NCBI GenBank assembly: GCA_002762785.1
Contig: PCXY01000003.1
Span: forward strand, 70,463 to 134,462
Length of the DNA: 64,000 nucleotides
Source of the DNA: Candidatus Woesearchaeota archaeon CG10_big_fil_rev_8_21_14_0_10_45_16
GTDB taxonomy: Archaea > Nanobdellota > Nanobdellia > Woesearchaeales > GW2011-AR9
Direction of reading: 5' to 3'
Shown here: one piece after another, positions 1 to 29,579 of the stretch
How the letters are laid out: each line of letters begins with the position of its first letter
How positions within the stretch are numbered: position 1 is the first letter of the stretch
The notes under the pieces: model-generated
Told to the model about the DNA's origin: nothing
Seen by the model: only the letters and a program-made list of their open reading frames with translations
Databases searched by the model: none
Position numbers and translations under genes: made by a program

Positions 1-262
1 TAAAGGTACTGACTCAACAATGAGTGTTAGAGTTTTATCATCTGAATCTAAAATTCTATGTGTGTTTATTCCAGCATCATACAATCGTGCTGTAACATCT
101 CTTTCTCGGGAATATCTTTGGTGTGCTCTCATAATTTTTTTTCTCTCTAAAAAAGCCCAAAGAACTGGAAGAGAAAAACCACCATAGGATTTGGTAAATG
201 TACCATTATCTACATTTGTTGAGTTACTACTTACATATTTTCCTAGCCAATCAAGATTCATT
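1..262 (-). CDS. hypothetical protein, 3' part cut by window edge (start codon at 262-260)
   Basis: Open frame on the minus strand from the ATG at 262 to the window start. Not in the ORF track because it is partial. Confidence 0.3.
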
Positions 263-318
263 ATTTAGTTGGGGGAGGCATTTTCATTATAAAGTTTACC
301 TCTATTATTTGCCCGTAG

Positions 319-383
319 TGATTGAGCATAACGATGTTATGCTTCCTTAGGTTTATCCTCAGGTCGAGGCGTAGCCGAGAAGT
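319..383 (+). repeat. composite repeat copy E1 (palindrome CATAACGATGTTATG at 326-340, then hairpin, then a CGTAG motif); candidate attC-like site
   Basis: Exact 15-bp palindrome shared with five other copies. The downstream 7-bp hairpin is degenerate (CCTTAGG tttat CCTCAGG). It is followed by cgtagccgagaag and a T-run. Confidence 0.6.
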
Positions 384-555
384 TTTCAAGTTACCGTGCA
401 TAGTGCGTTGCTGTCAGAAGTCTTTAACACATTTAGTTCAGGCAAAAACAATTAGTGGTTTCATAGTAGTTAGGGGGCTCTCTCGTTTTATCAAAATTAT
501 TAGCAAATTATTTAAATTAGTTCGGTTTTTAGTATGTAAGAGGTATTCAAAGAAA

Positions 556-756
556 ATGGAAACTGACATATTAACCAAGATTCATGAAGATTTAGAGATA
601 TTAAAGCATGATATGGCTGAGATTAAAGAAGTTATCAAACTAGAACCTGAACTACGTGAAGAAGTGATTGAACAAGTTAAAGAAGCCAGAGAACGTATTG
701 TTAAGGGACAATTTGTTAGCAATGAAGATATTCTTAAAGAGTTTGATGTAGAATGA
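556..756 (+). CDS. putative antitoxin, partner of the RelE-like toxin
   Basis: Small acidic ORF whose stop overlaps the toxin start (ATGA). The ORF-track start at 322 would translate through repeat E1, so the internal Met at 556 is the more plausible start. Confidence 0.5.
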   Translation: METDILTKIHEDLEILKHDMAEIKEVIKLEPELREEVIEQVKEARERIVKGQFVSNEDILKEFDVE

Positions 757-1037
757 GCTATGAAGTTATTTGGGATGACAAAGCCCGAAATTTCTTAAGG
801 AAAATTCACAAAGATGATGCTAAAAGAATTGTAAAGAAAGTAAATAGCATTGTTGATGATCCAAGGCATTATCTTGAAACATTAGTTGAGATTAAATCCT
901 ACAAATTAAGAATAGGAGATTTTAGAGCATTAATTGATTTGGATGAAAATAAGCAAACTATTTCTGTCGTGCTGGTTGGACATAGAAAAGATGTTTACAA
1001 ATATGTTCAGAGAAGTGGTTTTAGAAGAAAGAATTGA
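753..1037 (+). CDS. relE: RelE/ParE-family toxin
   Basis: Contains KLRIGDFRALIDLDENKQTISVVLVGHRKDVY, typical of RelE/StbE toxins. Small and translationally coupled to an upstream small ORF. Confidence 0.7.
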   Translation: MSYEVIWDDKARNFLRKIHKDDAKRIVKKVNSIVDDPRHYLETLVEIKSYKLRIGDFRALIDLDENKQTISVVLVGHRKDVYKYVQRSGFRRKN

Positions 1038-1053
1038 TAATTAAAAGAAAAAA

Positions 1054-1416
1054 TTAAAGACTTTGGCGTTGTGTCAATCCTCTTCCTAAATGGTTATAAA
1101 AATTGTGTGAAGCAGATTTTTCTTCTGTTGGATCTGCAACAAGTTCAATACCAAGAGGATTAAAGACTTTTTCTTTCATCTCCCCATCAATTCTTTTGGA
1201 TGAACCAATTGGAACTATCTGATATACTTGTGCAATAACATAAGCTCCAACAACTCCGTCTGTTCCAAAAAGATTGTTGCCATTTTCATCATTATCAGAT
1301 TCATGATATGCTCTGTGGATTGTTTGTAATGTAGCCAATCTTGTTGGATCTTTTCTAATATCATCTAAACAAAATTCAGCTGCTTCTCTTGGTTTTAATT
1401 GTCTAATTTCTGGCAT
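1054..1416 (-). CDS. hypothetical protein
   Basis: 120-aa ORF convergent with the TA pair. No recognisable motif. Confidence 0.4.
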   Translation of the reverse strand: MPEIRQLKPREAAEFCLDDIRKDPTRLATLQTIHRAYHESDNDENGNNLFGTDGVVGAYVIAQVYQIVPIGSSKRIDGEMKEKVFNPLGIELVADPTEEKSASHNFYNHLGRGLTQRQSL

Positions 1417-1620
1417 TTTTTATCCTCCCTATCACCAATTGTGTGAAGATAAGAGCTACTTTAAAAATATTTGTGTTTAAAATGAGAGAGAGCCCCCATT
1501 TCAGTATTTTACATTTACTTTGTTTTTGCCGTTATAGAGTTTTACATTGTTAAAGACAGCAACGCATTAGTTTAGAGAATTTCCTACAGGATTGTTCTCG
1601 TCTAGGTAACTTGAAAATTA

Positions 1621-1676
1621 AGCATAACGATGTTATGTTTCAGGGGGTTTATCCCCCTGCAAGCGTAGCGTAGAGT
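1621..1676 (+). repeat. composite repeat copy E2 (palindrome at 1623-1637; hairpin CAGGGGGtttatCCCCCTG at 1641-1659)
   Basis: Same architecture and orientation as E1 and E3-E6, followed by caagcgtagcgtagag and a T-run. Confidence 0.65.
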
Positions 1677-1775
1677 TTTTAGATTTGAGAACAAAGATTA
1701 ATCACGAACAGAGTGAGACAAGACTTTAGGAAAAAAGCCCTAAGTTATTTAAAGTAGTTAGAGAAATGATATGTT

Positions 1776-2486
1776 ATGGTTGATAAATTATTGGCGAGAG
1801 CAACAAGTCCCACACAGTATGATTTAGATGATATCTCATGGAGTACTGAAAATGGTCTCCAATCTCCTACAAGAAAATTCTTTTTTGATTATTTATTAGG
1901 ATTTAAGGAGGAGTGGAGAGATTCTGATATTTTAGATATTGGTTGTGGGACAGGTTGGTTAATGCATTTGTTAAAGGAGAATGGAGCAAAATCTGTTGAG
2001 GGAATAGAACCATCTCATAAAAATGTTGCATATGCAGGTGATAATGGATTTGAAATTTATCATTGCGATTTAGATTCTTTTTCAGAAGATAAGAGATATG
2101 ATTTATTAATTTCCGTTATGACTTTTGGACACATAAATAATATTGATTCTTCTTTTGAGAAGATGGCAAGATTAGTTAGAGATGGGGGTGGTGTCCAGTT
2201 AATTGTTCCTGCATATGATTATTTTAAAAGAGAAAGAGATGGTTGTAAGGTTGAATTTGAAGAATTAAATCCAGAGGAATATGTTGTTCAAGTAACTCGT
2301 GAGCAAGGAACAATTGCTGAAATTGTGAGAAAAGTGGAGTTTTATGAACGTGCCGCTGAACGAGTTGGTTTAACAGTTGAAGATTCTATTCCGATGGTTC
2401 CAACAGATTCATTGATGAGAGATTCTCCGAGACATGCAACATTTAAAGGTCAGCCAATAACATATCTAGTGAGACTGCGAAAATAG
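1776..2486 (+). CDS. class I SAM-dependent methyltransferase
   Basis: Motif I LDIGCGTGWL and the overall Rossmann methyltransferase pattern. Confidence 0.7.
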   Translation: MVDKLLARATSPTQYDLDDISWSTENGLQSPTRKFFFDYLLGFKEEWRDSDILDIGCGTGWLMHLLKENGAKSVEGIEPSHKNVAYAGDNGFEIYHCDLDSFSEDKRYDLLISVMTFGHINNIDSSFEKMARLVRDGGGVQLIVPAYDYFKRERDGCKVEFEELNPEEYVVQVTREQGTIAEIVRKVEFYERAAERVGLTVEDSIPMVPTDSLMRDSPRHATFKGQPITYLVRLRK

Positions 2487-2519
2487 GGCTTTTTTCTACT
2501 TTCTCAAATCTAAAAATTA

Positions 2520-2583
2520 AACATAACGATGTTATGCTTCGGGAGGTTCACCCTCCCGCAAGGAAACGGAGTTTGAGCGAGTG
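2520..2583 (+). repeat. composite repeat copy E3 (palindrome at 2522-2536; hairpin CGGGAGGttcacCCTCCCG at 2541-2559)
   Basis: Same 15-bp palindrome. The hairpin stem differs from E2/E5/E6 but stays fully complementary, which is a compensatory change. Confidence 0.65.
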
Positions 2584-2690
2584 TTGAAAACCAGCCGTTA
2601 GGCTGTAAATGGTTTTTCTCGCTCATTCCCGGTTTCCGCAGAGTCTGACCTTGAAATTTTGGACATATTGGCTTTTCCTTGAAATAATTC

Positions 2691-2782
2691 CCACCACTGA
2701 CGCTGGTGAGCCGGGGGATGCCCCCTCCGGGGTGGCGAACGAGGACTCACGAAGGGAGTCCGACAGCCGTCAGTAGTGGTGG
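2691..2782 (+). other. GC-rich structured element (candidate small ncRNA) in an ORF-less interval between repeats E3 and E4
   Basis: The outer inverted repeat CCACCACTGACG / CGTCAGTAGTGGTGG encloses two internal hairpins, GGGGGatgCCCCC and GGACTCacgaagggGAGTCC. The surroundings are AT-rich and no ORF of 60 aa or more is present. Confidence 0.35.
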
Positions 2783-2830
2783 ACGCATAATTATTTGATG
2801 GAAAATAACCAAAATTTAATGGTCATATTA

Positions 2831-2888
2831 AGCATAACGATGTTATGTCCCCCAGACTTTACGTCTGGGTGCGAACGTAGTGAGCAAG
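2831..2888 (+). repeat. composite repeat copy E4 (palindrome at 2833-2847; hairpin CCCAGACtttacGTCTGGG at 2851-2869; cgaacgtagtgagcaag)
   Basis: Same palindrome. Third independent stem sequence, same 7-bp-stem plus 5-nt TT-loop geometry. Confidence 0.65.
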
Positions 2889-2958
2889 TATTTTCCAACC
2901 GTGCAGAGAACTAGCGCCATATTTCCTAATCACTTGTAGTTAAAGGGGACAATTTTTT

Positions 2959-3963
2959 TTAGTGCTTGACTATTTCTAATTTTGCTTTTTTATTTTTGGC
3001 AAGAAGTTTGGCAGTTCCACCAATAGGAAATGTAATCATTGGATTAGTATGGCCAAAATCAACATTAGCAATAACAGGTAAGTGGTTTAATTCTTTTTTT
3101 GTTTTGATTATTTTTGTAAGTAATTCTTTAGTCATCTTTGTGGCTTTTTGAAATCTTCCTATTACTATTCCCTGCACTTTTTTAAATTCTGGTTGATGGA
3201 TGATTGATTGGATATCTCTGTCAATAGTGGCGACATGTGCTTCATAATCGTCTTCTAAGAAAAGAATACTACCCTTGATATTTGGTATGTATTCAGTTCC
3301 ATGAAGTAATTGAAGAGTGCATAAATTCCCTCCAATTATTTTTCCAGAAGCTTCGCCCTCATTAATTATCCAGAAACCATCGTTTTTCATAAATTCACGA
3401 TTTTCCTGATCATTTGCCCAGAGATCATCACTCCATTCTTTAGAAGGCAAGACTTCAAATGATTCATCAGAAAATAAGCATTTTTTGAAATAGTCTAATG
3501 AATAGTCAAATCCTCTCTTTTCCCCAAATGAGAAAAAGTGCAGACCAGAATATGTTACTAACCCTGTTTTTGCATAGATTGCATTTGCAAGAGCAGTAAT
3601 ATCTGAATAGCCACAAAGTATTTTAGGATTATTTTTGATTAAGTCATAATCTAAATATCGTAAAAGTTGATTAGAATTAAACCCGCCAATTACCGTTATG
3701 ATTAATTTTATTGATTTATCTTTAAACGCTTCATGGAGGTCATCTACTCGTTTTTTAATTGTTGAGGAATTGAATTCATCTATTTCGTTTACGTGTTCCG
3801 AAAAACTGACTTTAAGTCCTAATTCTTCTAAGCGTTTAATGGCTATTTTTTGTAATTCTTCATTAAGCCAGGGCATAGCCAAACTTCTTGCTGGTGTTAT
3901 TATACGAACGCCATCGCCAGATTTTAACTTTGCTGGAATCATACTTGTTAATGAACGTAGCAA
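2959..3963 (-). CDS. LD-carboxypeptidase (peptidase S66, LdcA/MccF-like)
   Basis: CGYSDITAL matches the GYSD serine motif of S66 peptidases, and the length of about 330 aa fits. Confidence 0.75.
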   Translation of the reverse strand: MLRSLTSMIPAKLKSGDGVRIITPARSLAMPWLNEELQKIAIKRLEELGLKVSFSEHVNEIDEFNSSTIKKRVDDLHEAFKDKSIKLIITVIGGFNSNQLLRYLDYDLIKNNPKILCGYSDITALANAIYAKTGLVTYSGLHFFSFGEKRGFDYSLDYFKKCLFSDESFEVLPSKEWSDDLWANDQENREFMKNDGFWIINEGEASGKIIGGNLCTLQLLHGTEYIPNIKGSILFLEDDYEAHVATIDRDIQSIIHQPEFKKVQGIVIGRFQKATKMTKELLTKIIKTKKELNHLPVIANVDFGHTNPMITFPIGGTAKLLAKNKKAKLEIVKH

Positions 3964-4097
3964 ATATATAAAATGTGCGGTAAAAATAGAGATTTAGAAA
4001 TTGTCCCCTACATTTGGTTTTACATTGTGATTAAGGCGCTAGTTTAGATTGTTAAAGTTAGCGTAAGCGTAGAATTGTTCTAGGTTGGAAAATATTG

Positions 4098-4158
4098 GAC
4101 ATAACGATGTTATGTTTCAGGGGGTTTATCCCCCTGCAAGACACGTAGTGTCGCAGAG
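4098..4158 (+). repeat. composite repeat copy E5 (palindrome at 4100-4114; hairpin at 4118-4136; acacgtagtgtcgcagag)
   Basis: Identical 19-nt hairpin to E2 and E6. The 3' mini-hairpin is GACACgtaGTGTC. An orphan GTAGTG-CATAAC half-site lies at 4187-4201. Confidence 0.65.
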
Positions 4159-4201
4159 GTTTTTGTTGTTGTATCAACCAGTTTAACGCTGTAGTGCATA
4201 A

Positions 4202-5077
4202 CTAATAATCTACGTGAACATGACCGTTTGATGCTATAATGTAACCAGCATATCTAATGAGAACTGCTTTAATATCTACATTTAATTCATGGAAGAGGTA
4301 ACTTCCGATTGTATTTTCATGGCTGAAATAAATGTTGATTGTTTTTTCTGATAAAGCACTCATTAGATTTCTTATTTCATTAGAAGTAGCTTCAGATAAG
4401 GGAGATTCTGTAATCCATTTTCTGAAATGTTCACGTAAAATTCTCAACTTTCTCCTATTTAGTGGGCTCCCATCTTCTAGTGTTTCTTTTAGTTCTGGAT
4501 ACCTCTCTTTCATATCTTTAATTTTTGAACCGCTTCCAGATAATGAACTGTTTTGTCTTGGTCGTGTTAAACGAGCATTAGAGTTTCTTGATAAATAAGA
4601 ATAAGAAAGATCAGCAAACAATCTTGTTCTTTTGCTGTCTGAATTATAGAAATTTACAGTTACATTATCATAAGCTTCCAAAAATTGTTTGAGAAATTTA
4701 TTAAATCTCCAAACTTGAATCATTCCTCTCATAGTTAAATTTTTTCCAGGAAGTTTCCGATAAGATGCCATTAATGGCTCAGGATGACGAACTAAAATAT
4801 TTACACCAGAAGAATTAAAAATTTTAATTTCATTTGTTAATTTTTGATAAGTTTCTTTCGTTGTTGATTCTTGACAATTTTTGATTATATTCAACAATGA
4901 GTTTTTCTGCTCCGATGAGAGATGTTTCTCAAATTTTTTGTAATAACCTAAAAGAAACTTCTCTAAACTTTTCATTCCAGCTTCAATAATTTTGATATCT
5001 TTCTCTTTATGAGAATTATTTAAGAGTTTTCTTCCTGAAGATTTCGTCAACGCAAGGAATGAACTAATATTCATCAT
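4202..5077 (-). CDS. hypothetical protein (weak sulfotransferase-like features)
   Basis: 291-aa ORF. The VRHPEP..SY stretch is faintly sulfotransferase-like and is not relied on. Confidence 0.35.
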   Translation of the reverse strand: MMNISSFLALTKSSGRKLLNNSHKEKDIKIIEAGMKSLEKFLLGYYKKFEKHLSSEQKNSLLNIIKNCQESTTKETYQKLTNEIKIFNSSGVNILVRHPEPLMASYRKLPGKNLTMRGMIQVWRFNKFLKQFLEAYDNVTVNFYNSDSKRTRLFADLSYSYLSRNSNARLTRPRQNSSLSGSGSKIKDMKERYPELKETLEDGSPLNRRKLRILREHFRKWITESPLSEATSNEIRNLMSALSEKTINIYFSHENTIGSYLFHELNVDIKAVLIRYAGYIIASNGHVHVDY

Positions 5078-5112
5078 AAGCTTTAAATAGATCTTATTTT
5101 CTTATAAAACTT

Positions 5113-5673
5113 ATGTTAATTGTTATAGCTGGATTAATTGGAGCAGGAAAATCAACAATTGCTAGAGAACTTTCTAAAAAACTTTCTAAAAAACTTTCTA
5201 AAAAACTTTCTATTCCATTATATAGTATAGATGATGACAAAAAGAGAGTTTACAAGACTCACCCTCAATATGAACATTTCTTGAAGAATCACATCCCATT
5301 TCCGGATGAGACTAGAAAAAAAACTTTTGATGCTTCATTGAAGGGTCTTAGAAAGTTAGCAGAAGAGCATAAACATGCAATTGTTGAAGAAACATTTCAT
5401 AAAAAAATTTTAAGAGATCCATTTTTTGAAGAGGCTAAGAAAATTTTCGGGGGAATGATTTTGATTCTTGCAAAAGTAGATGATAAATTAGTGAAAGAGA
5501 GGTTAGATAAGAGAGAGAAAGATGAAGACCATATGGTTGGATATGGGATGTATCTATCATTTAAGAAACAGTGGGAGCCATTTGAGAAAGTTGATTATGA
5601 ATTTGTTAATGAAGGAAATTTTGATGAAAATATGAATCAGTTGGTGAATTTCCTGAGAGATAAGTTAGATTAG
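5113..5673 (+). CDS. P-loop NTPase, putative nucleotide/nucleoside kinase (AAA_33-like)
   Basis: Walker A GLIGAGKST at the N-terminus. Contains a [12 protein letters not shown] repeat encoded by a 12-bp tandem repeat at 5176-5215. Confidence 0.55.
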   Translation: MLIVIAGLIGAGKSTIARELSKKLSKKLSKKLSIPLYSIDDDKKRVYKTHPQYEHFLKNHIPFPDETRKKTFDASLKGLRKLAEEHKHAIVEETFHKKILRDPFFEEAKKIFGGMILILAKVDDKLVKERLDKREKDEDHMVGYGMYLSFKKQWEPFEKVDYEFVNEGNFDENMNQLVNFLRDKLD

Positions 5674-5750
5674 TTATTTCTTTATGCACGGAAGCGTTAG
5701 GTTTGGGATTTAGCGTTAGCGTAGAATCCATTTACAACAACAAAAACTTA

Positions 5751-5809
5751 AACATAACGATGTTATGCCTCAGGGGGTTTATCCCCCTGCAAGCACGTAG
5801 TGCGCAGAG
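5751..5809 (+). repeat. composite repeat copy E6 (palindrome at 5753-5767; hairpin at 5771-5789; caagcacgtagtgcgcagag)
   Basis: Same architecture. The 3' mini-hairpin is GCACgtaGTGC. Confidence 0.65.
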
Positions 5810-5955
5810 TTGGATTCTCACGTTTTTAGAGGGGGGCGTCAGTTATGACATTAGTTAGTTTTTAGAAAGGGGTCGCCAAATAAAATTTTTGTTACTTGTA
5901 AGTAAATTACAGAAACATTTAAATATTTGCATAGATTTCTTTTATAATACAATGA

Positions 5956-7041
5956 TTGGCAAAGAACGTCAGGAAAGGGATTATATTCCTAATTGGTCAA
6001 GATTATTCTAGCTATAGCTTTAAAGATTTAAGATATGCATCTTCTAATGAAAATTTACAGGACATCTATAATAGAGTTGAAGGCATAAAAGGAAATGGCT
6101 TGTTTGTAATTGGTGGATTTGATCAAGTTGCTTCTTTGTTAGGACATTCCGAACTAGATTTAGCACATTTAGTTGATAACAATCTTACTGCTGTTGAATA
6201 TGCTAGATTCCGCTTAGCACTGACACAAATTTGTGATACTAGATTTGAATATGTTGGTCGACTGATATCACGGAGAGTAAAAGGAATTTTTAATAATATC
6301 TCTTCTTTGAGAAATTTTTATTCTTCTAGAGAGACAGCAAGTGTTAGATTGTTCAACTTTTATAGAACACTATATGATGAACGCCTTACAAGGCTAAGAA
6401 AATTACTTGATTTAAGTCTGTGTTCTGATACAATAGAAGAAAAAATGCTTTATTTTGGGCAATTTAGGATGGAATTTGAAAAAGAAGCAGGGAATATAAG
6501 GGGTATAGAATGGAGAAGAGAATCTCTGGAAGAAGATTTCTGTAGATATGAACAATTTTTAGAAGAAAGAGAAATCGCTTATGATTCTCTGTTTGCTGAA
6601 GAAACAGCTAAATTGCTTTGTGAAAATTTTGGAATTAGTAAAAATCTACTAGAAGAAACAATCTTGAGCGAATATTTTGAAAGTAAATTGAACTGGGGTG
6701 AAAATGATATGGTCGCTGGAAGGAGATTTTGGAGTTTTATTGAATCTAATAAGGACCATTGGCTTTCATCAGACGCCTATTTCGAGAGAGTAAAATCAAT
6801 GTACAGAGAAGAAAGAATTAAATTTTCTCAGCTAGACTTGACCAATGAAGATATCTCGCTTAATCTTTTTGGAGATTTGTCTTTAGTTTATTTATCTAAT
6901 ATTCATGAATGGGTAAAAGTTGAATTAGGAGAACTAATTAAATGTTTATGTTTAAATGAGTTAGGTGTTAATGAACACACAATTTTTCTTTACACAACAA
7001 CAAAAGGAAAGGGTAAATGTAAAATGGCGACCCCGTTATAG
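5956..7041 (+). CDS. hypothetical protein
   Basis: 361-aa ORF. A TATA-like element (cttttataata) sits about 10 bp upstream of the ATG, consistent with an archaeal leaderless transcript. Confidence 0.45.
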   Translation: MAKNVRKGIIFLIGQDYSSYSFKDLRYASSNENLQDIYNRVEGIKGNGLFVIGGFDQVASLLGHSELDLAHLVDNNLTAVEYARFRLALTQICDTRFEYVGRLISRRVKGIFNNISSLRNFYSSRETASVRLFNFYRTLYDERLTRLRKLLDLSLCSDTIEEKMLYFGQFRMEFEKEAGNIRGIEWRRESLEEDFCRYEQFLEEREIAYDSLFAEETAKLLCENFGISKNLLEETILSEYFESKLNWGENDMVAGRRFWSFIESNKDHWLSSDAYFERVKSMYREERIKFSQLDLTNEDISLNLFGDLSLVYLSNIHEWVKVELGELIKCLCLNELGVNEHTIFLYTTTKGKGKCKMATPL

Positions 7042-7123
7042 TTTTAGTTTTTATCTTCTCATAGAGAAGCGTTTTATACATAGCCCCACTCGTTTTTTTT
7101 AGTTTACGTGAGAATCCAATTAG

Positions 7124-7217
7124 GCATAACTCTTTATATGCTGAAATGGGCTGTAATGGGGGAATTTTGGGGATACAAGGGCTGTCCTGAAGCCCATAAA
7201 ACAATAAAGAGTTATGT
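7124..7217 (+). repeat. attC-like long imperfect hairpin E7 (gCATAAC-TCTTTAT ... ATAAAGA-GTTATGt)
   Basis: The 13-bp terminal inverted repeat CATAACTCTTTAT / ATAAAGAGTTATG starts with R''-like GCATAAC and ends with R'-like GTTATGT. An inner stem ATGGGCT/AGCCCAT is separated from it by unpaired bases, as in folded attC sites. Confidence 0.55.
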
Positions 7218-7417
7218 GCCACTATAACCATCATAGTAAGAAATGACTTAGAATGACCTAGAATGTCCTGAAAAAATCTAAATTCACTTTCTAAATTCAC
7301 CTAAAAAAACTTAACCACTTAACATCTTAACAACTTAAACTGACCTGAAATAACATCGATGGACGTATCAGCTTCAACATGGCTGATCTATGATCCCTCT
7401 GCACTGGTCAGCTTCTA
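7218..7417 (+). promoter_or_regulatory. attI-like / promoter region upstream of the recombinase gene, rich in short direct repeats
   Basis: TTAAC repeats with 8-bp period (four copies, 7311-7340). CTAAATTCAC occurs twice (7278-7300). TAGAATG occurs twice (7248-7266). The region sits between the last attC-like site and the recombinase start. Confidence 0.35.
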
Positions 7418-8446
7418 TTGTCCAGTGTGAGAGCGCTTCTACCTGCGAAATTTGGCAGGTTCAGCGGTTGGAGGATGAGCACTGGACACACTGGTCAGGT
7501 CCGGGTAAGATATATAAATCATAAAAGTCATGATAATGACATGGATATTAACATGGATGTTGCTGGCCTTATCACAAAAGAGGGATGGCGTCTGGGAAGA
7601 AGCCCCAGGACTATCAAGACCTACATCTACGTTGTAGAGAAATTCTTAAGGACGTATCATAAAGAGCCGCATCAGGTTACCAAACGGGACATTGAGAACC
7701 ATCTTCTTCGGCTGCAAGAAAGGAACAGCTCAGGCAATACGATGAATGTCCATCTCAACGCTCTTAAGTTCTTTTATGAAAGGGTCCTTAAGAAAAAGCT
7801 GACGGTCAATATCGAGTTTGCTAAAGTGCGGAAGAGTTTGCCCACGGTCTTGAGCAAAGAAGAGACTTCTGCCTTGTTTTCTGCCATCTCTAACCCTAAA
7901 CAGCAGTTGATGGTCAAGCTGCTCTATGCCAGCGGGATGCGGGTCAGTGAACTTGCTTCCTTGCGTGTGCGTGATCTTGAATTCAACAATAACTATGGAT
8001 GGGTCAGGAACGGCAAAGGTGGTAAGGATAGATTATTCATTATCGCCAAAAAGTTGAAGAACGAGATCCTGGCCAGGATATCTCAAAACAAACTGCATTC
8101 TGCTGACTGGCTATTTCCTGGGTATAACAGCAACCACATCAGCCCCAGTTCCATCCGCACTATCATCAAGACCGCTTCCCTGAAAGCTGGTATCAGCAAA
8201 AATGTTCATCCCCACACTTTGCGCCACTCTTTCGCCACCCATCTGATCGAAAATGGCTACGCGGTGACGGAAGTGCAGCCTCTCCTTGGCCATGGTTCGA
8301 TCAACACGACCATGATCTATCTTCATATCGCATCACCACAATTGTTAAAAGTAGAAAGTCCTCTTGATTCGTTAGGGACAGCAGCGAGAGAAGTAAGAAT
8401 AGTAAAGACGGTGGGGGTACGATCTGATCCTCTGGATGCTGCCTGA
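7418..8446 (+). CDS. tyrosine site-specific recombinase, integron-integrase-like (XerC/XerD/IntI family)
   Basis: Conserved blocks match IntI closely: LLYASGMRVSELASLRVRDL, GKGGKDR, HPHTLRHSFATHL, LLGHGSINTTMIYLHI and a C-terminal SPLDSL. The true start may be Met42 or Met46, at 7541 or 7553. Confidence 0.8.
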   Translation: MSSVRALLPAKFGRFSGWRMSTGHTGQVRVRYINHKSHDNDMDINMDVAGLITKEGWRLGRSPRTIKTYIYVVEKFLRTYHKEPHQVTKRDIENHLLRLQERNSSGNTMNVHLNALKFFYERVLKKKLTVNIEFAKVRKSLPTVLSKEETSALFSAISNPKQQLMVKLLYASGMRVSELASLRVRDLEFNNNYGWVRNGKGGKDRLFIIAKKLKNEILARISQNKLHSADWLFPGYNSNHISPSSIRTIIKTASLKAGISKNVHPHTLRHSFATHLIENGYAVTEVQPLLGHGSINTTMIYLHIASPQLLKVESPLDSLGTAAREVRIVKTVGVRSDPLDAA

Positions 8447-10779: not shown

Positions 10780-10883
10780 CTGTTCTTATTTTATCTTAAA
10801 GTGTATTTTTATTCATTATTATATAAGATTTACTGTATAATCCTTCTATCACAGCCATGTCGTTCGGCAACTTTTTTAAATGT

Positions 10884-11522
10884 TTAAAAATCACCTAAGT
10901 TAGTCTGTTTTCTTTTAACATTAATCACTGAAGCAATAGTCCGGAAATCGTCTTTCATCTGCTGCAGCATCTCTGGGTTTCGTCCTGAATAAAGGTAGCT
11001 GGCCGGATGGATGACCGGGACGACGCTGACTTCTTTCTGGTCTATGCTGGTCTTGAAGATCTTACCACGCAAAGACTTGATACCGGTCTTGCCGATGATC
11101 CTTTCTGTGGCGAAGTTGCCGATGGTGACGATAACCTTTGGTCGCATGATACCGATCAGCCGGTCCAGCCTTTCACGGCAGTTTTGCACTTCTTCTTTCT
11201 GAGGATTACGGTTGTCAGGCGGCCGGCAGAGGATGGTATTGGTGATAAAAATATCTTCCCGAGCCAGGTTGATGGAAGCTAATAACTCATCCAGGATCTT
11301 CCCGGACATACCGCAGAAAGGAACGCCATTTTTATCTTCATTAGCTCCAGGAGCTTCACCGATGAATAAGACTTCAGCCTGCTTGCTGCCGGAGCCGAAG
11401 ACGACTTGGGTCCTATTTTGACAGAGGATCGGGCATCTCTGGCAGGTGCGATATTCTTCTTTAAGCTGTTCGAAGGTCATGAAATGGGTAAGGGGATCTT
11501 TTGTGATTTTATGTCTTTTCAT
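10884..11522 (-). CDS. udg: uracil-DNA glycosylase, family 4
   Basis: CQRCPL motif and [23 protein letters not shown] (GEAPG...PF.G..G) are diagnostic of family 4 UDG. Confidence 0.75.
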
Positions 11523-13910: not shown

Positions 13911-14912
13911 TCAGGGCTTTTTTCTAACGATATGATCCGTAATTTCAGTTGAGAATGTGATCGGATAATCGACTTGGCATCTTTCTAATATACCATTTAA
14001 TTCGTCGATTCCAATGTCGCCGGTCACTTCCAAAGTTCGTTGCCTCTTATGATGTCCGTTTTTTCCATTAACTTTTACGCTTACACCAGAAGAGTCAGTT
14101 CTTCTTCCATGTCCGCGGACTCTTTTAGCCATTGCTTGTAACATCCCAACATCTACTCCTTTTTGAGATTCCACAGTAACGGTATACATACGTCTTTGTT
14201 GAAGAGCTTCTTCTAGGGCCTGAGCTGAATTTAAAACTTTTGAAGTTAAATATTGATGAAAGATAGCTTCGCACTGGTGGGGAGCATCAATTCTGCTTCC
14301 AAGATTTACCCTTGCTTCTAACGCTTTTCGAAGGAGAGAAGCGTATAATTCTCTTTCGTTTACTGGAATGATTGCGGGTGGATAGGCTGCTTGTTCTAAT
14401 GTAAAATTCTGTAGTAATCTAGCTGCTCTTCCATTACCGTCAGTATAAGGATGAATGTGGGCTAATCTAGCATGTGCCTCAATAGAACGTAGTACTGGAT
14501 GTATATCGGCGCGCTGTAGGGTATAAGCAAGACTATCCATCTCATAGATTATTCTTTCAGGCGCTGAGGGAGGAACGGTCCCGATCGTGACTTCGATATT
14601 TCTGTAATTGGCGGTAGGGTTATTTGCTGGTTCTATCAGATGTCCCAAAGATGCCAGAGAGGCTGTAGTGATTCCGCTTCGAGCTAGATGATCCCAAGCT
14701 CTTTCGATATTAGTTCCAAATTGCCTATCTCGTTTAGAATAAGATGATTGGCAACCAGTAGCTTCAGATTCGTCTTCTATAGCGATCGAATGACGGATTG
14801 CATCACGTCGGATGGCTCCTAATGTCTCTTTCCTGACATATAATGAATATTCTGGATGAGCGTTAATACGTCTAAGAGTAATATCTAGTCTCTCTAAAGT
14901 TTTTTGGGACAT
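13911..14912 (-). CDS. Fic/DOC family protein (putative AMPylase)
   Basis: HPYTDGNGRAARLL matches the Fic motif HPFx[DE]GNGR. Confidence 0.8.
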   Translation of the reverse strand: MSQKTLERLDITLRRINAHPEYSLYVRKETLGAIRRDAIRHSIAIEDESEATGCQSSYSKRDRQFGTNIERAWDHLARSGITTASLASLGHLIEPANNPTANYRNIEVTIGTVPPSAPERIIYEMDSLAYTLQRADIHPVLRSIEAHARLAHIHPYTDGNGRAARLLQNFTLEQAAYPPAIIPVNERELYASLLRKALEARVNLGSRIDAPHQCEAIFHQYLTSKVLNSAQALEEALQQRRMYTVTVESQKGVDVGMLQAMAKRVRGHGRRTDSSGVSVKVNGKNGHHKRQRTLEVTGDIGIDELNGILERCQVDYPITFSTEITDHIVRKKP

Positions 14913-29340: not shown

Positions 29341-29441
29341 GTGGGGGTAGCAAAGCCTGGTCAAATGCGCAGGACTTAAGACAACTTTGAAAGATATCCT
29401 GTCCTTTAGTAGGTTCGAGGGTTCAAATCCCTTCCCCCACA
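29341..29441 (+). tRNA. tRNA-Leu (anticodon UAA) with a 15-nt intron after position 37
   Basis: Acceptor stem GTGGGGG/CCCCCAC. Anticodon stem CAGGA/TCCTG. Loop is CTTAAG, then the intron, then A. Long variable arm. T-arm GAGGG-TTCAAAT-CCCTT. A TATA box lies upstream. Confidence 0.8.
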
Positions 29442-29493: not shown

Positions 29494-29579
29494 GCCCCTG
29501 TGGCCTAGCGGTATGGCGTTACCTTGGTATACATCATACAAAGAGGTAAAGGTCCCGAGTTCAAGTCTCGGCAGGGGCT
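29494..29579 (+). tRNA. tRNA-Thr (anticodon GGU) with a 14-nt intron after position 37
   Basis: Acceptor stem GCCCCTG/CAGGGGC. Anticodon stem TTACC/GGTAA. Loop is TTGGTA, then the intron, then A. T-arm CCGAG-TTCAAGT-CTCGG. Confidence 0.8.

Follow-up and report, generated by a model that had tools for sequence, protein, structure and literature searches.

A XerA-type recombinase gene beside an integron-like cassette array in a probable DPANN archaeon, with a 94-bp palindrome as the candidate terminal site

Integrons with IntI-type integrases and canonical attC sites have been reported in Archaea (PMC9668308, Ghaly et al. 2022). The capacity of IntI to recombine single-stranded attC is credited to an acquired I2 helix (PMC7790495, PMC4792948). 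The dif site of P. abyssi has been defined experimentally as ATTGGATATAA-TCGGCC-TTATATCTAAA; this reference is a 28-bp site in which 11-bp inverted arms enclose a 6-bp spacer, and the dif sites of the Thermococcales do not adjoin xerA (PMC2958812).

Small gene modules bounded by Xer-type sites occur as the pdif modules of Acinetobacter plasmids, which are shuffled between replicons and in which inverted sites alternate under XerC/XerD. In shufflons and invertons (Rci, Fim) a tyrosine recombinase gene lies by multiple short cognate sites, the inverted orientation of which serves to flip segments. Xer/dif systems are also used by IMEX (the CTX, VGJ and TLC phages and the gonococcal island), stacked units that have no recombinase of their own and are bounded by direct dif-like sites beside the host site. 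The partner sites of IMEX have non-identical spacers, which implies the exchange of one strand, and the attP(+) of the CTX phage is folded.

The locus described here lies in a window of 64,000 nt, by which is meant the whole stretch of DNA analysed; related loci in other genomes and contigs are designated by L numbers. Its 94-bp imperfect palindrome, at 7124-7217, is taken, with a probability of roughly 0.6, to be the terminal, recombinase-proximal site of an integron-like cassette platform run by the XerA-family recombinase encoded at 7541-8446. The layout is that of an integron, with a primary site (T) by the 5′ end of a tyrosine recombinase gene and a one-orientation array of small cassettes on the far side. 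T resembles attI in its position and in having a single conserved arm in common with the cassette sites. The cargo is also integron-like (a toxin-like pair, as read from the translation, a methyltransferase and many proteins of unknown function), and the cassette sites are structured imperfect palindromes with cassette-specific complementary parts. Unlike an integron integrase, however, the recombinase is without the I2 helix insert and classifies as XerA, and each site carries two extra conserved hairpins and no extrahelical-base signature. In contrast to attC, the conserved boxes are central and the variable complementary arms lie outside them, so that an integrated cassette has one part of the site at either end, which makes the site an 'inside-out' attC.

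With Xer/dif and its IMEX the locus has in common a XerA-family enzyme, a dif-like core (ATTRRNYATAA ... TTATR), and stacked units that have no recombinase of their own and are bounded by direct dif-like sites beside the putative host site. The spacers of T and of the compact cassette sites are likewise non-identical, and the inverted half-site hairpin recalls attP(+). The units are nevertheless cassettes of one to three genes and neither phages nor plasmids; the distance between the arms is 4-5 nt instead of 6; the sites come with conserved accessory hairpins and with inverted repeats specific to the cassette; and, unlike in the Thermococcales, the site adjoins xerA. In contrast to pdif modules, all sites are direct and a single recombinase is present, and in contrast to shufflons and invertons the direct sites bound whole genes.

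The recombinase gene (7541..8446, + strand) encodes 301 aa, has a host-like G+C content and was identified with profile models, structure alignments and homologues. Its start at 7541 was set by the homologues and by gene calls, and the TATA-like TATATAAAT at 7511-7519 suggests that xerA has a leaderless start. The protein passes the NCBIfam model for archaeal XerA (NF040815; score 235.5, cut-off 220) and fails the integron-integrase model (TIGR02249; score 216, cut-off 265), its match to which is split in two stretches. It aligns contiguously to the XerA structures 4a8e and 5hxy (P. abyssi and T. acidophilum), the best solved relatives, whereas the alignment with VchIntIA (IntI4) breaks where recombinase residues 183-198 stand opposite IntI4 residues 184-240, with 14 residues where VchIntIA has 55. 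This break indicates that the IntI-specific insert (the I2 helix) is absent. By these comparisons the recombinase is classified as a XerA-type enzyme, not an IntI.

The nearest homologues of the recombinase are 60-71% identical and, where named, come from Nanoarchaeota or Woesearchaeota; from this naming the host is probably a DPANN-type archaeon. No second tyrosine recombinase was found in the window, xerA being the only one. Downstream of xerA lie nre, a UDG gene, secE, an Spt5/NusG gene and the genes for ribosomal protein S10 and EF-1alpha. In L121, L206 and L208, too, xerA is followed by nre. Judged by its genes, this neighbourhood is archaeal chromosome. The sequence-only reading had placed the palindrome beside a recombinase, and the gene does adjoin it.

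The cassette array occupies positions 1..7120 (no strand assigned), as seen from G+C content and cargo, and is open at the left end of the window. The G+C content is 28-36% from base 1 to approximately 7350, as against approximately 45% in the rest of the window; set side by side, the array has 32-36% and the host 45%, and that of the relatives overall is approximately 33%. The cargo, encoded on both strands and separated by the compact elements, includes a methyltransferase, an LD-carboxypeptidase, an AAA-type kinase and a DUF7790 protein. One gene pair, which has no family match, is in our reading of its translation a RelE/ParE-like toxin pair.

Exact copies of CATAACGATGTTATG occur six times in the window, all on the + strand, at 327, 1623, 2522, 2833, 4100 and 5753, where 0.08 would be expected. 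They form the cores of six compact sites, also on the + strand: S1 (321..382, core 327-341, followed by hairpin 2 and hairpin 3), S2 (1617..1675, core 1623-1637), S3 (2516..2585, core 2522-2536), S4 (2827..2888, core 2833-2847), S5 (4094..4158, core 4100-4114) and S6 (5747..5809, core 5753-5767). The 311-bp unit that follows S3 has no ORF and weak arms. S4 is 98% identical over 63 nt to L009, and the S6 module (5752-5811) is 100% identical over 60 nt to L072 2509-2568. It had been noted from the sequence that the palindrome carries the same CATAAC/GTTATG boxes as the compact elements, and the six exact copies between 327 and 5767 bear this out.

Alignment of the compact sites gives ATTRAG-CWTAAC-GAT-GTTAWG-Y, followed by hairpin 2, a short linker, hairpin 3 and RAG|TT. 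Hairpin 2 has a 7-bp stem and a TTYAY loop; hairpin 3 has the loop GTA and often tandem G.A mismatches. Over 24 sites hairpin 2 is 98.8% paired, and six of its seven pairs have changed on both sides, a covariation that indicates selection to pair. In the palindromic core of the same 24 sites no compensatory change was seen, only one-sided variants such as CATAAC..GTTAAG and CTTAAC..GTTATG; the core thus behaves like two protein-binding half-sites that have apparently been re-assorted.

Arrays of the same sites were found in L072 (a Nanoarchaeota MAG, 7 copies in 8 kb), in L076 (a contig binned as Methanosarcinales, 6 copies) and in L119 (4 copies, upstream of its xerA), and single copies in several Woese- and Pacearchaeota contigs. 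The cores all lie on one strand in the window, in L072 and in L076. A scan of genome contigs for exact 16-mers returned 114 matches, most of them chance matches in bacteria; approximately 16 archaeal loci were genuine. The corresponding scan of viral contigs gave at least 120 chance matches and no genuine element, so that no episomal or circular form was found among them.

The cassettes also carry terminal inverted repeats. The 12-16 nt that follow the RAG of one site are the reverse complement of the 12-16 nt that precede the ATTRAG of the next. In the last cassette the right arm TTGGATTCTCACGT (5810..5823, + strand) pairs with the left arm ACGTGAGAATCCAA (7106..7119, + strand), which abuts T. 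Four other cassette-specific pairs, within 383..5747, lie at 383-395/1605-1617, 1676-1691/2501-2516, 2889-2900/4083-4094 and 4159-4173/5733-5747. Over 21 cassettes from five loci, the median complementary run between cognate arms was 13 nt, as compared with 6 nt (95th percentile, 8) for 629 non-cognate pairs, and 18 of the 21 cognate pairs exceeded that percentile. Arms that flank the same site, mutual complementarity of which would indicate a circular form, showed none.

When circular cassette junctions were built in silico, they folded into a four-way structure composed of a 13-17 bp arm stem, the core hairpin, hairpin 2 and hairpin 3. These virtual junctions had folding energies of -24 to -34 kcal/mol (z -6 to -8.5), as against -12 to -21 kcal/mol for the real array junctions. 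The variable position of the core agrees across the cassette in three of the four testable variant cases, the T of L207 included: GTTAAG is followed by CTTAAC in L072 (103->1502), L076 (3241->7071) and L207 (498->T), the exception being L119 (5164->5922). This agreement points to an exchange point between the two half-sites. Hairpin 2 and the arms covary strongly, which argues for the importance of some single-stranded or cruciform form; neither covariation would be explained by an Xer model confined to double-stranded DNA.

The 94-bp palindrome (7124..7217, no strand assigned) lies just past the stop codon of the DUF7790 gene; a run of eight T residues, at approximately 7092-7099, lies just before the left arm of the last cassette. 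The ends of the element are gCATAACTCTTTAT (7124-7137) and ATAAAGAGTTATGt (7204-7217). A repeat search found its outer arms, 7125-7137 and 7204-7216, to be 13 nt long, 100% complementary and 66 nt apart. An internal loop of 8 by 6 nt, ATGCTGAA (7138-7145) opposite AAAACA (7198-7203), separates them from an inner stem of 7 bp, ATGGGCT (7146-7152) with AGCCCAT (7191-7197). The architecture described from the letters alone, a 13-bp terminal stem, an internal loop and an inner 7-bp stem over 94 bp, is thus confirmed by the sequence and the repeat search.

Folded as single-stranded DNA, the + strand has an energy of -14.5 kcal/mol (z -3.9) and the - strand one of -14.0 kcal/mol (z -4.7), and in neither case was any of 200 shuffles as good. 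The two folds are about equal, and there is thus no strand asymmetry. The 13-bp stem is uninterrupted: it contains no unpaired R/L spacer and no extrahelical base within the boxes. The sequence-only reading had proposed extrahelical bases and a check of which strand gives the stable fold; no such bases are present, and no bias towards either strand was seen. Its designation of the element as a canonical-looking attC-type hairpin is not upheld, because the enzyme is XerA-type and without the IntI insert, the element is single-copy and terminal, and the hairpin is not conserved.

In simulated sequence, perfect 13-bp inverted repeats within 200 nt arose 0.28 times per 64 kb and 0.10 times per 7.6-kb AT-rich segment, and 22 of 300 such segments contained at least one. 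The perfect repeat alone is therefore only modestly unlikely in AT-rich DNA. That the element is non-random follows from the boxes it has in common with the six compact sites, its position at the end of the array by the recombinase gene, and homologous elements in relatives.

It is apparent that the palindrome consists of T together with an inverted copy of the left half of T. CATAACTCTTTAT occurs in the window at 7125 and, inverted, at 7204, and nowhere else. The right arm (7204..7217, - strand, from the repeat search) is this second, inverted copy and, like the right halves of compact sites, has TGCC after it. Because it thereby resembles such a right half, the element may also be read as a compact site in which 79 nt have replaced the GAT centre. 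The inner part (7146..7197, no strand assigned), which includes the ATGGGCT/AGCCCAT stem, is conserved with L129 in sequence (AAATGGGCTGTA, ATTTTGGGG, AGCCCATA). No conserved fold of the inner 66 nt was common to the window and either L129 or L121. Rfam searches of the entire window at the gathering threshold, and of positions 1-8000 at E values up to 10, returned no family at the sites.

The conserved core of T is the left 23 bp of the element (7119..7141, + strand), ATTAGG-CATAAC-TCTTTATATGC, in which two short inverted arms surround an A/T-rich spacer; it was identified by alignment by eye, by a motif scan and by comparison with the dif of P. abyssi. T could be aligned by eye upstream of xerA homologues in approximately 20 loci, mostly metagenome contigs, with the consensus ATTGAR-YWTAAC-TSTYYATATRC. 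A loose motif scan recovered 17 of these sites 140-416 nt upstream of xerA on the same strand, and four more at 539-1643 nt; inside the arrays of L072 and L076 the same scan gave no match on the + strand. The left arm of T, ATTAGGCATAA, matches the left arm of the P. abyssi dif at 8 of 11 positions, and that of L082 does so at 10 of 11. As a dif arm the right arm of T is weak, and the ATAA-TTAT spacing is 4 nt in T and 5 nt in the compact sites, versus 6 nt in known dif.

T has the ATTRAG-CATAAC left half in common with the compact sites and, within the window, GTTATG as well. This agrees with the proposal, made from the sequence alone, that the two element types belong to one recombination system. 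By the alignment and the motif scan, T is a single site at the proximal end of the array, beside the recombinase gene, with one arm in common with the cassette sites, as is an attI; seven related sites occur within 7 kb of window sequence. The part of the palindrome that is conserved, 7119-7141, thus has the position of an attI and a dif-like sequence, and it is presumably functional.

In the window, L121, L207 and L112, T is immediately preceded by the left arm of the last cassette, and in L207 the left half of T matches the right half of the preceding site. L112 joins a compact site, a cassette and T to the very sequence with which the xerA contig L205 begins, and in L037 T stands directly behind a compact site with almost nothing in between. 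To the right of GTTATG lies lineage-conserved chromosomal DNA and no cassette. The stretch from T to the xerA promoter contains 3.9 tandem copies of AACTTAAC (7308..7338, + strand), which repeat the half-site variant CTTAAC; they were not seen in relatives, and are possible accessory binding sites.

The right arm of the palindrome is far less widespread than T. Among 19 homologous terminal sites, the window included, a scan for an inverted copy of the left arm of T found a significant one in the window alone, and 17 other loci were at chance level. In L124 visual inspection revealed a gapped counterpart, TAGGGGAGTTATGTGC, which folding bore out: TAACTCCCTATATCCAAA and TTTGGATGTAGGGGAGTTA form 18 pairs with one bulged G (-14.5 kcal/mol, z -5.2). 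The recombinase of L124 is 59% identical to that of the window. Between the two hairpins the right end, GTTATGTGC, is identical, and two pairs are altered on both sides (TT/AA to CC/GG). These compensatory changes fit a selected hairpin, and equally well two partner sites that need identical spacers. The terminal sites of L121, L119 and L206 folded no better than shuffles, and L129 has kept the inner sequence motifs with a different fold. On this comparison the 94-bp hairpin is a feature of a sub-lineage, with a counterpart only in L124, and its absence from most relatives indicates that it is not a general requirement.

Further observations bear on mobility. From one genome to another, site modules are 100% identical but their flanking arms, left and right, are not the same, and an identical module is present in organisms whose recombinases are 67% identical. 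L009 and L072 have a cassette start in common, comprising the second hairpin of the site and approximately 25 nt of right arm, while their left neighbours and their first hairpins differ. Identical modules with differing arms are not what a single crossover in the core would predict; they may point to gene conversion or to another exchange point near AG|TT. AG|TT was rejected as the main crossover, since T-type sites are always terminal. The unit with a Fic gene in L123, L124 and L133 was considered as a crossover marker and set aside, having borders of its own that are unrelated to the sites.

Three independent assemblies of the window organism break at cassette borders, and in most metagenome contigs with xerA the sequence extends only a few hundred bp upstream of it. 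Such breaks would be expected of strain-variable arrays or of repeats, but are not proof of either. Contig ends in SRR6240789 (5802, 7101 and 7106) were rejected as strain variants, being too ambiguous. A search for direct signs of recombination yielded no circular junction, no empty T and no pair of strains with different cassettes at T.

T might instead be the dif of the chromosome, serving dimer resolution and lying beside xerA as difSL lies by xerS, with the cassettes as parasitic stacked IMEX and the hairpin as an incidental scar. This alternative is considered unlikely, although it overlaps the preferred reading rather than excluding it. The XerA equivalog model is passed, xerA is the sole tyrosine recombinase of the window and stands in conserved chromosomal neighbourhoods, T resembles the dif of P. 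abyssi, and most relatives lack the hairpin, all as it would have it. Yet Thermococcales dif sites do not adjoin xerA (PMC2958812), the cargo consists of short cassettes of one to three genes with covarying sites and specific arms instead of phages or plasmids, and arrays lie upstream of xerA in many genomes. The reading as a genuine integron attC, in which an integron integrase would recombine the folded bottom strand of the hairpin at the G|TT of GTTATG, is very improbable. The layout is indeed R''-L''...L'-R': GCATAAC departs from RYYYAAC at one position, as does GTTATGT from GTTRRRY, the two boxes pair, and the pair TCTTTAT/ATAAAGA comes next inside; a dif-like arm would show the same boxes. 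The 94-nt length with its significant fold, the sub-threshold match to TIGR02249 and the occurrence of integrons in Archaea (PMC9668308) also speak for an attC. Against it stand the missing IntI insert, the single terminal copy beside six internal sites of the compact type, and the lack of an unpaired spacer, extrahelical bases or strand bias; moreover, the right arm is absent in 17 of the 19 scanned sites, and the DNA to the right of GTTATG is conserved chromosome, not a cassette.

Two other explanations concern the palindrome itself. XerA might flip the 66-bp segment between the inverted half-sites as a switch, or the second half-site might be an operator by which XerA regulates itself or the array. 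Partner sites require identical spacers, and the 7-nt spacers next to the two inverted left-arm copies are identical; co-evolution of partner sites could equally account for the compensatory changes seen in L124, and CTTAAC tandem repeats are nearby; 66 bp is, however, very short for synapsis on the same DNA, the inverted orientation occurs in no assembly, and the feature is absent in most relatives, which together make this reading quite improbable. Slighter still is the chance that the palindrome is fortuitous, serves to terminate transcription of the gene upstream, or encodes a small RNA. Its position just after the DUF7790 stop codon and the 7% of simulated AT-rich segments with a perfect 13-bp inverted repeat would suit such readings, but the boxes are common to six sites and homologous T sites occur in approximately 20 loci, and the T run upstream already provides a terminator of the archaeal type. 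These readings are also disfavoured by the lack of any Rfam match even at E values up to 10 and of a common fold with L129 or L121. MITEs, CRISPR-like arrays, shufflons, terminal-repeat transposons and RNA processing signals were dismissed, the sites being direct, dif-like and xerA-linked, with cassette-specific arms.

What the comparisons establish is how the locus is built, that T is conserved, to which family the recombinase belongs, that hairpin 2 covaries and that the arms of a cassette are complementary. The preferred reading, a cassette platform run by XerA with T as its terminal site, goes further: recombination as such, the place of the crossover, the direction in which cassettes insert and a part played by folding are inferred. 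XerA would excise a cassette as a circle via two neighbouring compact cores and would insert circles at T, with strand exchange at or beside the common left arm CWTAAC. Insertion there would leave the right part of T by xerA and make the internal junctions compact hybrid sites, and the left half of T would be whatever the last cassette brought. Since neither the spacer nor the right arm of T is the same as in the compact sites, probably only one pair of strands is exchanged, the junction being resolved by replication. Such single-strand exchange resolved by replication is the course taken in integrons and IMEX. To judge by the arms and hairpins, it matters in some way that the excised cassette can fold or form a cruciform. 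The inverted repeat of the left half of T, 66 bp downstream, might enable T to fold, or might be bound by another dimer of the recombinase.

A broader proposal, held tentatively and at somewhat less than even odds, is that DPANN-type archaea possess an undescribed cassette-capture platform built on a housekeeping-type XerA and dif-like sites, with structured cassette sites of its own. These sites would combine a palindromic core, two hairpins and terminal inverted repeats, and the four-way fold would form only in the excised circle. The platform might have arisen independently of integrons on the same principle, or might be a living case of the intermediate between Xer and integron for which models of IntI evolution call, and the 94-bp hairpin might be an attI-like variant that is acquiring a folded, attC-like form. 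The core sequence matched nothing in papers or in the supplementary tables of PMC9668308, and no description of Xer-based cassette arrays in archaea was found in the searchable literature, which is incomplete, so that a prior description is possible. A Xer-based cassette platform is thus apparently undescribed.

The question of the origin of integrons from Xer-like double-strand recombinases has so far been approached by engineering IntI (PMC4792948, PMC7790495). A natural array served by an enzyme without the insert would make this question testable, and the sites in the window, half dif-like and half like a folded attC, would give experiments real substrates to work with. Such arrays would probably escape integron-finding software, and metagenome assemblies break at them. 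The identical site modules, together with low-G+C cassettes in a host of 45% G+C, point to a common cassette pool. If the proposal is true, these arrays would constitute a route of gene exchange among DPANN archaea, the mobile elements of which are poorly known.

Terminal inverted repeats of 12-16 nt, different for each cassette, adjoin the conserved sites of the window. These arms are situated at 383-395/1605-1617, 1676-1691/2501-2516, 2889-2900/4083-4094, 4159-4173/5733-5747 and 5810-5823/7106-7119, and cassette-specific repeats of this type are also present in the related loci L072, L076, L119 and L121. When the cassettes are joined as circles in silico, their junctions fold into a four-way structure. 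The site module (core, hairpin 2 and hairpin 3) is 98-100% identical across organisms whose recombinases are approximately 67% identical, as was observed for window 5752-5811 and L072 2509-2568, and for window 2827-2889 and L009. The arms on either side of these modules differ. Such near-identical modules between differing arms suggest either that strands are also exchanged at a second position or that gene conversion has taken place.

Within hairpin 3 (e.g. GCGAAC-GTA-GTGAGC and CGAGGC-GTA-GCCGAG), the site alignment reveals that tandem G.A mismatches around the GTA loop are kept, for example at window 2869-2886 and 364-380. These mismatches would be expected to be stable on the + strand only.

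In other, independent assemblies of the same organism, contigs break at or beside cassette borders, the ends (L115, L116, L330 and L117) corresponding to window 2276, 5777, 5802 and 7101/7106. The majority of metagenome contigs containing xerA, the XerA-type recombinase gene, terminate 100-600 bp 5′ of it. A tandem repeat with a 12-nt unit, coding for 13 residues, was observed in the kinase ORF (window 5168-5208).

Two tandem repeats are situated between the terminal site T and the xerA promoter: AATGACCTAG (2.8 copies, window 7242-7269) and AACTTAAC (3.9 copies, 7308-7338), the latter containing CTTAAC, a variant half-site. They may be accessory binding sites; neither was seen in relatives. 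The motif CCACTGG(T/A)CA is found immediately 5′ of the xerA TATA box (window 7402-7410 and 7480-7497), is conserved across many relatives (L121, L123, L124, L127, L129 and L204-L207), frequently in two copies, and may represent an operator. Apart from that of T, the sole perfect 13-bp inverted repeat in the whole window with arms within 200 nt is CTTCTTTTTCCAC/GTGGAAAAAGAAG, at 49413-49425/49466-49478.

A Fic-domain gene unit with inverted repeats of its own, TTGTCCACA/TGTGGACAA, was found in three arrays (L123 7010-8013, L124 1865-2879 and L133 939-1953), where its borders bear no relation to cassette sites. In the window, a Fic gene lies outside the array, at 13911-14912. Two tRNA genes were identified using Rfam, at window 29341-29441 and 29494-29579; their lengths (101 and 86 nt) indicate that they probably contain introns. 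ARAGORN, unlike Rfam, reported no tRNA gene.

A module of approximately 100 nt, AGAGGAAAACCCTGT...CATCAAGGCACCAACTTTAAAGTT..TAGAGTTTAGCG.AAGCGT, is common to L119 (9690-9800) and L207 (1780-1870), where it lies at the 3′ end of the last cassette, immediately before the left arm; the last cassettes of the two loci are different. Motifs similar to TTAGCGTWAGCGT are found upstream of window sites S5 (4094-4158) and S6 (5747-5809). In L119, a 385-kb contig, inverted repeats of approximately 150 bp (2960-3125 and 10840-11080) flank the entire array together with xerA, and have at their inner ends a different dif-like palindrome, GTAT-CATAAAAATTCTTATG-TAAGC. This arrangement suggests that the L119 array and its xerA gene constitute an invertible or mobile unit.
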